Of a stretch of DNA of 64,000 nt, positions 9,140 through 63,890 are shown in pieces. Position 1 is the first letter of the stretch. Each line of letters begins with the position of its first letter. The position numbers and the translations under genes were made by a program. The stretch is from Gammaproteobacteria bacterium (GTDB lineage: Bacteria > Pseudomonadota > Gammaproteobacteria > Eutrophobiales > Eutrophobiaceae): contig OZ220696.1 in assembly GCA_965116495.1 (NCBI GenBank), forward strand, positions 1,056,001 through 1,120,000, given 5' to 3'. The notes beneath the pieces were generated by a model, which searched no databases, was not told the origin of the DNA, and saw only the letters and a list, made by a program, of their open reading frames with translations.

Positions 9140-10540
<1,401 letters not shown>

Positions 10541-10544
<4 letters not shown>

Positions 10545-12527: not shown

Positions 12528-12644
12528 AGCCACAGAGGACATAGAGAAACAGTCGAACTGTCATACCTGCGCAAGCAGGTATCCGGTATACAGACTTTCC
12601 TCGGGGAATGGGGTCAGGAAGTAAACTCTGTGTCCTCTGTGGCT
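12528..12644. repeat. AGCCACAGAGGACA(T/C)AGAG inverted-repeat element with a nested REP-like hairpin
   Basis: 19-bp arms at 12528-12546 and 12626-12644 (1 mismatch); interior tgtcatacctgcgcaagcaggtatcc. Confidence 0.8.
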
Positions 12645-21680: not shown

Positions 21681-21796
21681 AATTACGAATTACAAATTAC
21701 AAATTACGAATTAGGAATTACGAATTACGAATTACGAATTACGAATTGGGTTTTTAAGATTTTAATTCCTAATTCGTAATTTGTAATTCCTAATTG
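21681..21796. repeat. Inverted heptamer arrays (AATTACG x10, 12-nt spacer, reverse-complement units x4-5)
   Basis: Read directly; overlaps the TAG stop of the dUTPase gene. Confidence 0.95.
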
Positions 21797-36504: not shown

Positions 36505-36532
36505 CTGGATTATGGTATGGATGGCTGTTTGA

Positions 36533-36672
36533 CTGGATTCCGGCTTCCGCCGGAATGACGGATTGACTTCCACCGGAATGACGGATTGACTTCCACCGGA
36601 ATGACGGATTGGCTTCCGTCGGAGTGACGGATTGGCTTAACGGCGGAATGACGGGTTGGCTTAACGGCGGAA
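36533..36672. repeat. REP-derived 23-bp tandem array (about 5.5 units) overlapping the ffh 3' end
   Basis: g(g/a)cttcc(g/a)ccggaatgacggatt units from 36542. Confidence 0.88.
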
Positions 36673-47632: not shown

Positions 47633-48391
47633 ATGAGAAAATTATTTTACCTGGCAGTGCTGCTCTGGTTCCCCGGAGCGCATGCACAGTCCATGAACGT
47701 CGCGGTCGCATCCAACCTGACCCATACGATTAGCGAAATCAGCAAGGTTTTTTTTCTGGATGAGGGAGAAAAGGTCAACCTGACTTTTGGTTCATCCGGG
47801 AATTTTGCCAGGCAGATCGTACAGGGTGCGCCTTACAAGGTCTTTATTTCCGCCGGCAAACAGTACGTGGACTTCATCCGGGACAAGGGCCGGGAGACAA
47901 TCGGCTTCAAGGCGCTGGTTCATGGCCGCCTCAGCTTGTATATCCCGGAAACATCGAAACTGGAAAAGCAGGCGACACTGGCCGATGCGCTGAAGACGAT
48001 TCAATACGGCGACTTCCGCAGACTGGCTGTCGCCAACCCGGAACATGCACCCTATGGCCAGGCTGCCAGGGAAGCGCTGGTCAATGCAGGTGTATGGGTT
48101 GTTAACCACAAAAAGCTGCTGTTTGGTGAAAATGCAGCGCAGGCAATGCAATTCTGCCTGTCCGGAAGCGTAGACATGTGTATCATTCCCAGTTCTTTTC
48201 TGGTGCTGGAACAATTCTCAGGCAAGGGAGACAATTTCACGATCCCGCTGAAGTGGCACCCTCCCATCACTCAATACGCTGTTTTGCTCGATAACAGCGA
48301 TGAACAGGGCGTGCGCTATTTTAACTACCTGTCGTCCGCGTCCAGTGAAGCCATTTTCAGGAAACACGGCTACATCTTGATTGAGAATTAA
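47633..48391 (+). CDS. modA: Molybdate ABC transporter substrate-binding protein
   Basis: AVASNL, FGSSG, ANPEHAPYG, GEN; start trimmed to ATG 47633. Confidence 0.93.
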   Translation: MRKLFYLAVLLWFPGAHAQSMNVAVASNLTHTISEISKVFFLDEGEKVNLTFGSSGNFARQIVQGAPYKVFISAGKQYVDFIRDKGRETIGFKALVHGRLSLYIPETSKLEKQATLADALKTIQYGDFRRLAVANPEHAPYGQAAREALVNAGVWVVNHKKLLFGENAAQAMQFCLSGSVDMCIIPSSFLVLEQFSGKGDNFTIPLKWHPPITQYAVLLDNSDEQGVRYFNYLSSASSEAIFRKHGYILIEN

Positions 48392-48548
48392 GAATTAGGA
48401 ATTACGAATTACGAATTGGGAATTGGGAATGACTGTACATGGCGGGGTTCTGTTTATCGAGATGGCCGTACCAAATCAGCACCGCTCAGAACTTGTGTTA
48501 GAGTAACGTGTCCCCAATTCGTAATTCCTAATTCGTAATTCGTAATTC
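48386..48548. repeat. Inverted heptamer arrays flanking an ~80-nt unique interior between modA and modB
   Basis: aatt(a/g)(a/c/g)g x6 at 48386-48427; reverse-complement units x5 at 48513-48548; modA TAA lies in the first unit. Confidence 0.93.
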
Positions 48549-48556
48549 AAATTTAT

Positions 48557-52732: not shown

Positions 52733-52752
52733 ATTGAGAATTATGATTATTT

Positions 52753-52918
52753 ATCTGCAAATTACGCAGATTATCGCAGATAAAAATACAAATTTATTAT
52801 TGAAGTTGTCTGGTTCAGATATGGTTAATTTAAACCTGATTTTATCCGGAAGCTGAAAAACAGTTAATCAGTAAATTTTTTTATAATTTAATCTGCGATA
52901 ATCTGCCTAATCTGCGGA
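52753..52918. repeat. CCGCAGAT-arm inverted-repeat element, copy F
   Basis: atctgcaaattacgcagattatcgcagat ... atctgcgataatctgcctaatctgcgga. Confidence 0.88.
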
Positions 52919-52924
52919 CAAATA

Positions 52925-59176: not shown

Positions 59177-60807
59177 TGAGCTGGACAGGTCGAACCGGGT
59201 TAGTGGCCAGCCTAGTTTCGACATTATTGCTGGCTGCCTCATGCGGCTTCAATTACGAAACGAATGTAGAGAGCGGTGCGCGTGAGGGGATATTACATAT
59301 CGGTAATGGCGACGAACCCCGGGAGCTTGATCCCCATGTCGTAACCGGCCGCATCGAGTCCGACCTGTGCCTGGCGCTGCTGGAAGGCCTGGTCGGCTGG
59401 CATCCCGAAGGAAAGCGCTTGATCCCCGCCGCCGCCAAATCCTGGGAGCAAAGCGAAGACGCCAGAACATACCGGTTCCACCTGCGTGAAGACGCAAAAT
59501 GGTCCAACGGCGACCCGGTAACGGCCACGGACTTTGTCTATTCATGGCGCCGGGCGCTGCTGCCTGCCCTGGGCAACAACTATGCTTATATGCTGTATTA
59601 CATCAGGAACGCGGAAAGGTTCCACCAGGGGGAAATAACGGATTTCTCCCGGGTGGGCATCACGGCGCCCGATGACCTGACCCTGGTGGTCGAACTTGAG
59701 AACCCGACGCCATTTTTCCTGCAGTTACTGACACACATGAGCTATTATCCCGTCCACCAGGCGACTGTCGAAGCGTTCGGGGCCGCGGATGAACGCGGCA
59801 CGCGCTGGACCCGTCCGGGGAACCACGTGGGGAACGGCCCGTTCAAGCTGAAGGAGTGGGTGCTGAACCGCAGCATCGTCGTGGAGAAGAACGAATATTA
59901 CTGGGATGCCGGTGCGGTGAAATTGAACCAGATCGTCTTCTACCCAGTCCAGAATGCGACCACGGAAGAACGCATGTTCCGCGCCGGCCAGTTGCACATC
60001 ACCACTAATATGCCGGTTGACAAGATAGCGCACTACCGGCAGGAAAGACCCGGCACCCTGAAAATCTCACCTTATTTATCGACCTACTACTATCTCTTCA
60101 ATACTACCGTTGCGCCGCTCGACCGGGTAAAGGTCAGGCAGGCCCTGACCATGTCCATCGACCGGCAACAGGTAGTAGATAAGATCACCAAGGCGGGAGA
60201 GATCCCGGCCTTCAGCTACACCCCGCCTGATACCAACGGCTACACGGCAACCGCGCGGGTACGCTATGACCTGGAACGCGCCAAGGCCCTGCTCGCGGAA
60301 GCGGGCTATCCTGGCGGGACGGGTTTTCCCGGCCTGGAGTTAATGTACAACACCTCCGAGGGGCATCGCCGGATAGCCATAGCCATCCAGCAGATGTGGA
60401 AGACCAACCTCAACATCGACGTTACGCTGACGAACCAGGACTGGAAGGTATACCTGGATAAACGCGATGAGAAAGACTACCAGGTAGCGCGGGCCGGCTG
60501 GATTGGTGATTACCTGGATCCCAATACCTTTCTCGATATGTACACTACAAACAGCGGCAATAACGACACGGGCTGGTCGAACCGGCGCTACGACGCACTG
60601 ATAGCACTGGCCGGCGCAACCACGGACCAGGAACGCCGCTTCACCCTTTTCCAGGATGCCGAATCCATCCTGATGACCGAGTTGCCTATCATGCCCATCT
60701 ACACGTACGTCAGCAAATCACTGGTCTCACCGGACGTGCGCGGCTGGTATCCGAATATCCTGGATATCCACCCGTTTAAATATATTTCCCTGGTGTCAGG
60801 AAAATGA
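59176..60807 (+). CDS. oppA: Oligopeptide ABC substrate-binding lipoprotein
   Basis: Lipobox LAASC, KWSNGDPVTA.DFVYSWRR, NGPF.L, RAGWIGDY.DP. Confidence 0.88.
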   Translation: MSWTGRTGLVASLVSTLLLAASCGFNYETNVESGAREGILHIGNGDEPRELDPHVVTGRIESDLCLALLEGLVGWHPEGKRLIPAAAKSWEQSEDARTYRFHLREDAKWSNGDPVTATDFVYSWRRALLPALGNNYAYMLYYIRNAERFHQGEITDFSRVGITAPDDLTLVVELENPTPFFLQLLTHMSYYPVHQATVEAFGAADERGTRWTRPGNHVGNGPFKLKEWVLNRSIVVEKNEYYWDAGAVKLNQIVFYPVQNATTEERMFRAGQLHITTNMPVDKIAHYRQERPGTLKISPYLSTYYYLFNTTVAPLDRVKVRQALTMSIDRQQVVDKITKAGEIPAFSYTPPDTNGYTATARVRYDLERAKALLAEAGYPGGTGFPGLELMYNTSEGHRRIAIAIQQMWKTNLNIDVTLTNQDWKVYLDKRDEKDYQVARAGWIGDYLDPNTFLDMYTTNSGNNDTGWSNRRYDALIALAGATTDQERRFTLFQDAESILMTELPIMPIYTYVSKSLVSPDVRGWYPNILDIHPFKYISLVSGK

Positions 60808-61031
60808 CGAATTAGGAATTACGAATTACGAATTACGAATTAGGAATTACGAATTACGAATTACGAATTACGAATTACGAATTACGAATTAGGAATTAGG
60901 AATTAGGAATTAGGAATTACGAATTAGGAATTAGGAATTAGGAATTAGGAATTAGGAATTAGGAATCATTAAGTTGGCAAAATACTTCACTAACCTAGAA
61001 TTCGTAATTCCTAATTCCTAATTCGTAATTC
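60803..61031. repeat. Inverted heptamer arrays (about 23 x AATTA(C/G)G, ~30-nt spacer, about 5 reverse units) between oppA and oppB
   Basis: Read directly; the oppA TGA lies in the degenerate first unit aaTGAcg. Confidence 0.95.
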
Positions 61032-61044
61032 TCTAGATAATAAT

Positions 61045-61977
61045 ATGTTCAAATTCATACTCAAACGCTTGTTGCAAGCGATCCCGGTACTGCTGGTTGT
61101 CAGCGTCATCACTTTCCTGCTGATCCATGCGGCGCCCGGCGGGCCGTTTGCCGAGGAGAAGGCGGTCCCACCGGAAGTGCTCAAGCACCTGAACGAACGT
61201 TACAAGCTGGACCAGCCTATTTACGTTCAATTTTATGACTACATCAGCCATGCCATTAAGGGAGAGCTGGGACCCTCCTTCAAATATCCCGGCAGGTCGG
61301 TAAACGAGATCATCGCCGCCGGTTTCCCTGTCACGCTGGAACTGGGTTGTTACGCCCTGCTGTTCGCCCTGCTCATCGGTATCGGCAGCGGGGTGTGCGC
61401 GTCGTTGAACCCGAATACCTGGCAGGACTACGTCCCCATGACGTTTGCCACCATCGGTATCTGCCTGCCCGCATACGTACTGGGCCCGTTGCTGGTGCTG
61501 GTCTTCGGCATCTGGCTGGAGTGGTTGCCCGTGGCCGGCTGGGGGCTGATCCCGGGGGACAAGATTCTACCCTCCGTTACCCTGGGTTCGGTGTATGCCG
61601 CCTACATCGCCCGGCTGAGCCGGGGCGGGATGCTGGAAACCCTGTCCCGGGATTTTATCCGCACCGCACGGGCCAAGGGCATGCCCGAGGCGGTGATCAT
61701 ATTCCGTCATGCCATGCGGGTCGGCCTGTTGCCGGTAGTGTCCTTCCTTGGACCGGCGCTGGCGGGTCTGCTCAGCGGTTCCTTCGTGGTTGAAACCATT
61801 TTCCAGGTGCCGGGCCTGGGCCGCTACTTCGTACAGGGCGCATTCAACCGGGATTACACCCTGATCCTGGGCACCACCCTGTTATTCGCTTCCCTGATCA
61901 TCGTCTTCAACCTGATCTCCGACGTGATGCTGGCATGGCTGGATCCCAGGGTAAGGCAGGAGACCGTCCATGGGTGA
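61045..61977 (+). CDS. oppB: Oligopeptide ABC permease
   Basis: APGGPF, GPSFKY, FIRTARAKG, GSFVVETIF.VPGLG, NRDY. Confidence 0.92.
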   Translation: MFKFILKRLLQAIPVLLVVSVITFLLIHAAPGGPFAEEKAVPPEVLKHLNERYKLDQPIYVQFYDYISHAIKGELGPSFKYPGRSVNEIIAAGFPVTLELGCYALLFALLIGIGSGVCASLNPNTWQDYVPMTFATIGICLPAYVLGPLLVLVFGIWLEWLPVAGWGLIPGDKILPSVTLGSVYAAYIARLSRGGMLETLSRDFIRTARAKGMPEAVIIFRHAMRVGLLPVVSFLGPALAGLLSGSFVVETIFQVPGLGRYFVQGAFNRDYTLILGTTLLFASLIIVFNLISDVMLAWLDPRVRQETVHG

Positions 61978-62857
61978 GCAGCAAGGGTTAATCCCGGAAA
62001 GCACCCGGAATATGGGGATCAGTACCTCACCACGCCAGGACGCCTGGCGCAGGCTGAAAAAGAACAAGGCGGCCATGTTTGGACTGGTGGTGCTGGGGGC
62101 GCTGATAGCCCTGTCTCTCCTGGCCCCCTGGATTACTCCCTATTCCTATTCTGCACAAAACCTGGAATTAGGCCCGAGCTCCCCTTCCGCACAGCACTGG
62201 CTGGGCAGCGACCTGTTCGGTCGCGACCTGTTGACGAGAATAATCTATGGCAGCCGCATCTCGCTCGCGGTGGGTTTCGTTGCCACTGCCGTGGCGTTGC
62301 TCATCGGCGTGACCTGGGGCGCCGTGGCCGGTTACCTGGGGGGACGCGTCGATGCCTGGATGATGCGTACCGTGGACGTACTGTATGCCCTGCCCTTCAC
62401 CATTTTCATCATCCTGCTGATGGTGGTGTTCGGCAGCAACATCATCCTGCTGTTCCTGGCCATCGGCGCCGTTGAGTGGCTGACCATGGCACGCATCGTG
62501 CGCGGCCAGGTGTTACACGTCAAGCAGAAGGATTTCGTTGAGGCAGCCGTCAGCCTGGGTCTGTCGCGTTTCCAGATCATCAGAAAGCACGTGATCCCGA
62601 ATATCATGGGAACGGTGATAGTGTACGCCACCCTCACCGTACCCAATGTCATCCTGCTGGAATCTTTCCTCAGCTTCCTGGGCCTGGGTGTTCAGCCCCC
62701 GCAAAGCTCCTGGGGCCTGCTTATCTCATACGGGGTTGAGACCATGGAGGAATACCCCTGGCTGCTGATCTTCCCCGCGGCAGTACTGTCACTGACCCTG
62801 TTCTCCCTCAACTTTCTCGGCGACGGCCTGCGCGACGCCCTGAGTGAGAGGTTATAA
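61970..62857 (+). CDS. oppC: Oligopeptide ABC permease
   Basis: HWLG.D.FGRDL, ARIVRGQ, ESFLSFLGLG, GDGLRDAL. Confidence 0.92.
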   Translation: MGEQQGLIPESTRNMGISTSPRQDAWRRLKKNKAAMFGLVVLGALIALSLLAPWITPYSYSAQNLELGPSSPSAQHWLGSDLFGRDLLTRIIYGSRISLAVGFVATAVALLIGVTWGAVAGYLGGRVDAWMMRTVDVLYALPFTIFIILLMVVFGSNIILLFLAIGAVEWLTMARIVRGQVLHVKQKDFVEAAVSLGLSRFQIIRKHVIPNIMGTVIVYATLTVPNVILLESFLSFLGLGVQPPQSSWGLLISYGVETMEEYPWLLIFPAAVLSLTLFSLNFLGDGLRDALSERL

Positions 62858-62873
62858 TCAACAGAAAAAATAA

Positions 62874-63026
62874 ATCCGCAGATGACGCAGATTACCGCAG
62901 ATAAAAATATAAAAGATCAGGAGACTTACAAAATTCTTGGGGCGGCAATGGCTGTACATAGAGAACTGGGACATGGTTTTCTTGAGACTTGTTTTTAATC
63001 TGCGTTAATCTGCGTCATCTGCGGAT
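62874..63026. mobile_element. CCGCAGAT-arm inverted-repeat element, copy G, containing a GxxExxY gene remnant
   Basis: atccgcagatgacgcagattaccgcagat ... atctgcgttaatctgcgtcatctgcggat. Confidence 0.85.
62882..63008 (+). pseudogene. Internally deleted GxxExxY-family gene
   Basis: 62882-62998 translates MTQITADKNIKDQETYKILGAAMAVHRELGHGFLETCF*; a shifted frame at the junction reads RLVFNLR*, resembling the family C-terminus. Confidence 0.8.
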
Positions 63027-63104
63027 AAATCATCTGCAGATGTACAATTACACTGATGCATGGCAAAATAATCCCATGTGTATCAGGATAAACAAGGGGT
63101 AAGT

Positions 63105-63890
63105 ATGGGGCTGTTGACAGGAAAACGCGCGTTGATTGTGGGGGTGGCCAGCAACCGTTCGATTGCCTGGGGGATTGCCAAGGCGATGCACCGGGAAGGA
63201 GCGGAGCTTGCGTTTACCTACCAGAATGAAAAACTGCAGGGGCGGGTTGAGAAGTTCGCCGCGGAAGCAGGGTCGGACATTACGCTACCTTGTGACGTAG
63301 CCGATGATGCCGAAATTAACAACGTATTTACCCGCCTGGCTGAATACTGGCCGCACCTGGATATCCTGGTTCATTCCGTCGCTTTTGCAGACCGGGAGCT
63401 GCTCGAAGGGGATTACCTGGACAGTATTACCCGGGAGGGTTTTCTCAAGGCCCAGGACATCAGCGCCTACAGTTTTGCCGCACTGGGTCAGGCGGCCCGC
63501 CCGCTGATGCAGGGCCGGGACGGCGCCATGCTCACCCTGACCTATATCGGTTCGGTCAGGGCCATGCCGAACTACAACGTGATGGGGATCGCCAAGGCCA
63601 GCCTCGAAGCCAACGTGCGTTACATGGCCGCCGACCTCGGGCCGGAGAGTATCCGCGTCAACGCCATCTCGGCAGGTCCTATCCGCACCCTGGCGGCCTC
63701 CGGCATCAAGGGCTTGAGGGGGTTCCTCAACCATGTCGAGCGGGTTACGCCCCTGCGCAGGAACGTCACCATTGAAGAGGTGGGCAACGTGGCCGCGTTC
63801 CTGTGTTCCGATTACGCGTCCGCCGTTACCGGGGAGATCACCTACGTCGATTGCGGTTACAGCGTGACCGGCAGTGAGGGGAAGGAGTAG
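63105..63890 (+). CDS. fabI: Enoyl-ACP reductase
   Basis: [39 protein letters not shown]. Confidence 0.96.

Follow-up and report, generated by a model that had tools for sequence, protein, structure and literature searches.

A gene relic between inverted arms upstream of fabI

We examined a 64,000-nt stretch of a gammaproteobacterial genome (G000; the whole stretch is hereafter the window), in which a short inverted-repeat element separates two forward-strand genes. Upstream lies an oppC-like oligopeptide ABC permease gene (61970–62857, stop codon at 62855–62857) and downstream a fabI-like enoyl-ACP reductase gene (63078–63890). The element itself (62874–63026) has 29-nt inverted arms, the left at 62874–62902 on the forward strand and the right at 62998–63026 on the reverse strand, which differ by one mismatch and each consist of three CGCAGAT units at a pitch of 9–10 nt. 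Single units also flank it. The outer left unit (62857–62866, forward strand) is degenerate, resembles a unit in the element-free allele of relative G015 and is probably a remnant of an older arm; the outer right unit (63032–63041) is a 10-nt palindrome, assigned to neither strand, with similar units in most relatives, those carrying element-free alleles included. A promoter-like pair of hexamers with 17-nt spacing (63041–63069, forward strand), likewise similar in most relatives, lies 5' of fabI and may serve as its promoter.

The motif CCGCAGAT occurs 16 times in the window versus 2.83 expected. The element folds far more stably than 200 shuffled versions (z = −8.2), and as RNA the relic would form a stem of −69.6 kcal/mol. 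No Rfam family matched it at gathering score, the best result (30 bits versus a gathering score of 211) being a generic chance hairpin match.

Between the arms is an open reading frame (62882–62998) that begins, as originally predicted, at an ATG inside the left arm, so that the arm encodes residues 1–7. Profile searches agreed with the proposed membership of the GxxExxY family: the ORF matched TIGR04256 with E 1.7e-5 and 25.2 bits, which is below the 35-bit cut-off, and PF13366 with E 1.1e-4 and 23 bits (cut-off 22). Codons 1–35 of the gene (62882–62986, forward strand) meet codons 126–132 and the native stop (62985–63008, forward strand) at a forward-strand junction at 62985–62986, where a 272-nt internal deletion has removed codons 36–125 plus a 2-nt microhomology. 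Owing to this deletion the frame is shifted, and the fused ORF encodes 38 residues that end in TCF at a stop at 62996–62998. The RLVFNLR-stop tail described in the original prediction is thus joined at the DNA level, with the native stop (63006–63008) inside the right arm, but it lies in a different frame. The nuclease domain is incomplete, with D75, E85, K87, Q99 and Y103 lost, and we found no intact GxxExxY gene in G000 among five candidates, a family search returning only the relic. Since most predicted catalytic residues are gone and the genome holds no intact copy, the element is a dead descendant rather than the autonomous partner it had been proposed to be: 62874–63026 represents a 425-nt GxxExxY cassette that carries an internal deletion and is dead.

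A contig from sequencing run X5, which belongs to a study other than that of X1–X4, covers 62877–63025 with 0 differences, and the relic allele is therefore not an assembly error. Contigs from X2 and X3, whose study is possibly the window's own, also show 0 differences over 62877–63022.

The window carries repeats of other kinds. Tandem heptamer arrays (GAATTAC/GAATTAG) occupy gene junctions at 10430–10544, 21681–21796, 48384–48555 and 60803–61031, several of them followed by an inverted array. CGTC-type palindromic repeats, which we take to resemble the repeats linked to Ssn nucleases, lie at 12559, 17685, 36523–36664, 43152 and 55752, and such repeats are nested within CGCAGAT arms in G018 and G000. 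Positions 55–632 hold about three near-identical copies of a 155-nt tandem repeat.

Alleles and turnover of the elements within the genus

We compared the oppC-fabI junction of G000 with those of 14 relatives. G001 carries an intact 425-nt cassette at this position, with a gene (L018:1489–1884, reverse strand) whose start codon lies in the left arm and whose stop codon lies in the right; its 132-residue product scores 140.8 bits against TIGR04256 (cut-off 35). The view of the relic as a full arm-gene-arm unit minus its middle thus finds its intact orthologous allele. The codons kept in the relic differ from those of G001 at 3 of 35 positions (two silent, one replacement), so the loss was recent. 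A separate deletion, of 147 nt, marks the G016 allele. Arms like those of the relic surround unrelated filler in G008 and a CGTC-type repeat in G018, while G002 and G014 have GGGGTCAGAG arms and G009 and G004 have CACAGAG arms. The anticipated presence/absence polymorphism was also found: G015, G003 and G005 have no element, or single outer units only, and the G015-type element-free joint recurs in run X9. As for the rest, G006 retains a right-arm remnant, G010 has two other ORFs and G007 a different neighbor gene. This allele series therefore shows the inferred loss of the middle directly, and the junction offers a direct view of a gene-less repeat arising from a gene cassette. As a separate observation, the junction (loci L025–L038) is occupied in different species by one of four repeat families unrelated to each other or by an insert of two ORFs, and these always lie on the 5' side of fabI's conserved promoter-like site.

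Across G000 as a whole, 31 pairs of arms face inward and 22 arms stand unpaired, versus none in the reversed genome. Of the 31 pairs, 22 measure 130–157 nt; short pairs of this kind that enclose no gene are hereafter called minis. One filler family is common to five pairs at separate loci, and four fillers are gene-derived, to which BLAST adds that of window positions 52752–52919. The first arm spacer was concordant within the pair in 20 of 27 cases, versus 12.7 in shuffled pairs. At four sites on contig C1 (878216, 1838584, 2070246 and 3533377), a solo arm with no partner leads directly, across a short spacer, to what looks like a start codon. The relic (C1:1118874) and a second gene-derived mini at C1:4275306 arose independently, each through a longer intermediate that relatives show (278 and 251 nt), and both measure 153 nt, which suggests a preferred size.

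Loci fetched from across the genus yielded 110 distinct elements. Among the 101 short ones, 19 are deletion derivatives of the gene, some of them orthologous copies, and 82 have fillers with no detectable gene origin. Elements with gene or gene-derived content form 11 clusters by flanking sequence; five span several genomes, and in three of them one genome has the gene intact where others have deletions; six are singletons, some of which may be unrecognized orthologues. G005 has one and the same gene-derived mini at two neighboring junctions, separated by 1.1 kb and unrelated in their flanks; one of these junctions is the site of the intact gene in G018. Eight G000 sites aligned with up to five relatives differed mostly by presence or absence or by replacement of the filler, and at two of the eight the filler was inverted. 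Three relatives lack the mini at G000:987746, and its filler family occurs at five places in G008, one of them oppC-fabI, and once more in G016; the polarity of this and the other presence/absence alleles reads either way, and the element ends are not clean. At the same site (C1:987746–987884; loci L161–L165), the stop codon overlaps the start codon in the element-free allele, while the filled alleles have the two apart and one extra codon.

Target-site duplications were absent from 99 of 109 elements (control 99.5), none was evident at element-free alleles, and extended inverted repeats outside the arms equaled controls. A further degenerate outer unit lay within 35 nt of 55 of 219 arm flanks, as compared with 2 at 100–135 nt and 2% in shuffles. 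A fixed cutting distance was considered and rejected; the distance from deletion end to right arm is 13 nt in G000 and 7 nt in G016, but across the 19 derivatives it varies from 7 to 130 nt. Among the joints listed from contigs of eight runs, which are assemblies rather than reads, none had the change of strand that inversion or excision within a population would leave. Similar minis often lie 1–3.3 kb apart at neighboring junctions (L151:1406 and 2552 in G005; L254 and L255 in G016; 1384444 and 1387790, and 2469580 and 2470619, in G000), suggesting local copying. Farther afield, three GxxExxY cassettes stand head to tail in G068 (C1:3352734–3353961; L056, L204) with a 443-nt period and identical junctions, which may be a true multimer or an assembly artifact.

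Intact genes, their arms and the putative nuclease encoded

A profile match over the cut-off was present in 14 of 61 relatives, a patchy distribution, while the arm pattern was present in 21 of 61 genomes searched, all within the genus. Of 14 genus genomes with at least 20 arm matches, three keep an intact gene of the cognate clade; two of the remaining 11 are less than 90% complete. All 15 intact genes found in 60 relatives are flanked, by eye, by inverted arrays of units whose words differ by clade. This association holds beyond the genus. In 80 gene loci from a species collection, three of which repeat genes already seen, 57 had an inverted-repeat score of at least 12, versus 1 of 579 shifted windows. 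Twenty-four of the 80 also score in the direct orientation, owing, among the loci listed, to extra minis and nested arms.

We reduced 154 loci to 126 unique intact genes, a set biased by the query toward the CGCAGAT clade. At least three chained units accompanied 108 of these and canonical arms 80, as compared with 42 and 0 of 465 control windows, the enrichment that the original prediction called for; by this strict test, 46 of the 126 genes have no canonical arms. None of the three outcomes named beforehand as fatal to the original prediction was observed. Searching from the arms instead, in metagenomes, we found GxxExxY sequence immediately interior to the arm at 8 of 126 loci, on the outer side at 1 of 68 and at a distance at 0 of 55. 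Sixty-six of the metagenome arm loci are minis, two longer pairs contain unrelated ORFs, and no second gene recurred between paired arms in this test. On viral contigs, 33 of 130 arm loci were minis and 0 of 130 held the gene, with no viral carrier confirmed. In many homologues the arms encode the ends of the protein, start and stop codons lying inside them, and other GxxExxY clades repeat the pattern with other words. The arm-gene association spans many phyla.

The last base of the word tracks residue 102 of the protein, T occurring with N in 78 of 80 cases and G with T or S in 24 of 25, with weaker associations at word positions 2, 4 and 5. We tried and rejected independent co-evolution of word and protein as the cause. 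The match of position 7 with residue 102 amounts to one deep split in the tree, so co-inheritance suffices.

Intact GxxExxY genes are under strong purifying selection, with dN/dS of 0.06–0.16 in all nine pairs close enough for comparison. E35, D75, K87, Q99 and Y103 are invariant in both alignments, and D75, E85 and K87 are conserved. Q99 and Y103 presumably form the QxxxY motif of RecB-type nucleases, and we take E35, D75, E85-K87 and Q99-Y103 together to be an active site of the RecB/Cas4 type. Such active sites are linked to single-stranded substrates. A structure model of the intact protein (pLDDT 89) had Cas4 SSO0001 as its best Foldseek match (E 2.5e-5), and in VIA, BpuSI and Cas4 were tied (Z 7.7, rmsd 3.5, 101 aligned), below the level the tool treats as distinctive, Z-scores that leave the substrate of the nuclease unfixed. 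The intact protein is predicted to adopt a PD-(D/E)XK fold near Cas4. A sequence search gave no relative of solved structure below E 0.07. Profiles matched GxxExxY/PDDEXK_3 only and no known transposase family, and the 132 residues make up one nuclease domain, no strand-transfer domain being evident.

Models for the spread of the cassettes

We regard gene and arms together as a likely selfish DNA element, whose enzyme would cut at its own arms. As to how it spreads, we give roughly even chances to a model in which host repair of a nick, made at the arms by the Cas4/RecB-like nuclease, brings in a copy of another armed element. The protein would bind the 7-nt words on arms in single-stranded form or in an extruded hairpin, and would place its nick near the outer unit. 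Repair would then proceed by template switching or recombination, the donor being a second armed element, often a near neighbor. Internal deletions would generate gene-less minis, mostly of 130–157 nt, that depend on the protein in trans; with the helper gene gone from G000, the family there would now be largely inactive. Nick-and-copy would account for the absent target duplications, the leftover outer units, the replacement and inversion of fillers and the local copies. Counted against it are the presence of an intact cognate gene in just 3 of 14 arm-rich genus genomes, the 82 of 101 fillers with no gene origin, the 46 of 126 intact genes outside canonical arms, the unclean element ends and ambiguous polarity of the presence/absence alleles, and the inversions and arm homogenization, for which template switching would suffice.

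The 11 arm-rich genomes with no such gene also speak for a passenger role, in which host template switching or recombination, or an unnamed enzyme acting in trans, spreads the arms and GxxExxY is cargo with an unrelated job. Polymerase template switching can yield inversion and arm homogenization with no nuclease (PMC8604942), and the filler inversions and arm concordance seen here fit such a passive process. The passenger role is also favored by the lack of gene origin in most fillers and by the viral-contig arms, none of which (0/130) encloses the gene. A mere passenger would not be expected, however, to have its start and stop codons in the arms and its ends encoded by them in many homologues, to keep this pattern with other words in other clades of the family, or to be the only gene that recurs between arms, and we consider this reading unlikely.

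We are similarly doubtful that the nuclease and its arms are a domesticated, Ssn-like pair, in which the nuclease does recognize the arms but is kept for a host job, for instance to restrict single-stranded DNA that enters the cell or to process operon mRNA at the stems, with the spread of minis as a side effect. Strong purifying selection would suit such a role, as would the position of the elements at operon junctions near stop and start codons, the −69.6 kcal/mol stem of the relic RNA and the precedent of Ssn, which modulates transformation (PMC11893778). Against it, the gene is patchy (14 of 61 relatives), has repeatedly decayed and changes sites, and PF13366 has been reported to form mixed clades with multiple transfers (PMC3424549).

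A classical cut-and-paste insertion sequence (IS) with MITE derivatives, in which GxxExxY by itself cuts the cassette out at its arm ends and moves it to a new site, would explain the terminal inverted repeats, the internal-deletion derivatives, the occupation of several sites and the G068 trimer, whose 443-nt head-to-tail period resembles joined ends, but it is very improbable given the lack of target-site duplications (none in 99 of 109 elements; control 99.5), the ragged ends with leftover outer units and a protein of 132 residues whose one domain is that of a nuclease, no domain for strand transfer being evident. IS-derived MITEs are the paired ends that remain when a gene-bearing element loses its interior, and the relic likewise has terminal inverted repeats in common with the gene-bearing G001 element. 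The derivation the original prediction drew from this likeness is not supported in its classical form: the elements have no target-site duplication, their enzyme is predicted to have a PD-(D/E)XK fold and is not a DDE transposase, fillers are frequently replaced, and elements nest in old arms.

Nick-and-copy by the GxxExxY nuclease, the reading we prefer, has its closest parallels among systems that pair a nuclease with repeats. Chenal et al. (2025; PMC11893778) describe Ssn nucleases, which cut single-stranded DNA next to their own hairpin repeats (NTS/SRM), and compare the repeat-Ssn-repeat layout to an IS. In that system too, a small single-domain nuclease gene sits between inverted repeats that also occur gene-less in many copies. 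Ssn, however, is a GIY-YIG enzyme and GxxExxY a PD-(D/E)XK one. NTS repeats contain one hairpin each (PMC11893778), whereas GxxExxY arms contain three tandem 7-nt words each and the two arms pair together. Unlike Ssn, the GxxExxY gene overlaps its own arms, and cutting has been shown for Ssn (PMC11893778) while for GxxExxY it is predicted.

RAYT/REPIN systems (PMC5581495, PMC3116915) are alike in their non-autonomous inverted doublets, extragenic hairpins, low-copy nuclease gene and singlets as remnants. As in REPINs, the G000 repeats are mostly inverted doublets that form a hairpin (31 inward pairs versus 22 unpaired arms; z −8.2). RAYTs, though, are HUH tyrosine transposases that are mostly single-copy and vertically inherited (PMC5581495, PMC3116915), whereas the GxxExxY gene changes site and is often lost; and as opposed to REPINs, the arms are not themselves palindromes, and the minis come from deletion of the gene cassette itself. 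TIRtrons, whose TIRYT gene lies between terminal inverted repeats found in dispersed families of dimers as well (Di Nocera et al. 2013; PMC3733652, main text), offer a third likeness, and arms that fit their GGGGWSAS motif occupy oppC-fabI in G002 and G014. Their enzyme, unlike GxxExxY, is a tyrosine transposase, and the CAGAT word occurs 0 times in that main text. We found no description of a link between the GxxExxY gene and arms in the literature searched, which largely lies outside subscription journals, nor in 12 of the 14 supplements of the Ssn paper (PMC11893778).

It is possible, and we suggest it only tentatively, that GxxExxY cassettes form a mobile-element class of their own, in which a Cas4/RecB-like nuclease of about 130 residues, partly encoded by its arms, would read a clade-specific array of three words and home by nick-and-copy into older arms, with no transposase or target duplication, in many phyla. 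If true, this would add a third enzyme fold to repeat-plus-nuclease systems, after HUH (RAYT) and GIY-YIG (Ssn). PF13366, listed as 'Unknown' in PMC3424549, is a large family of unknown function that now has a concrete candidate substrate, its own arms. If the words are read on single-stranded DNA, the family would supply site-specific nucleases of very small size and varied specificities.
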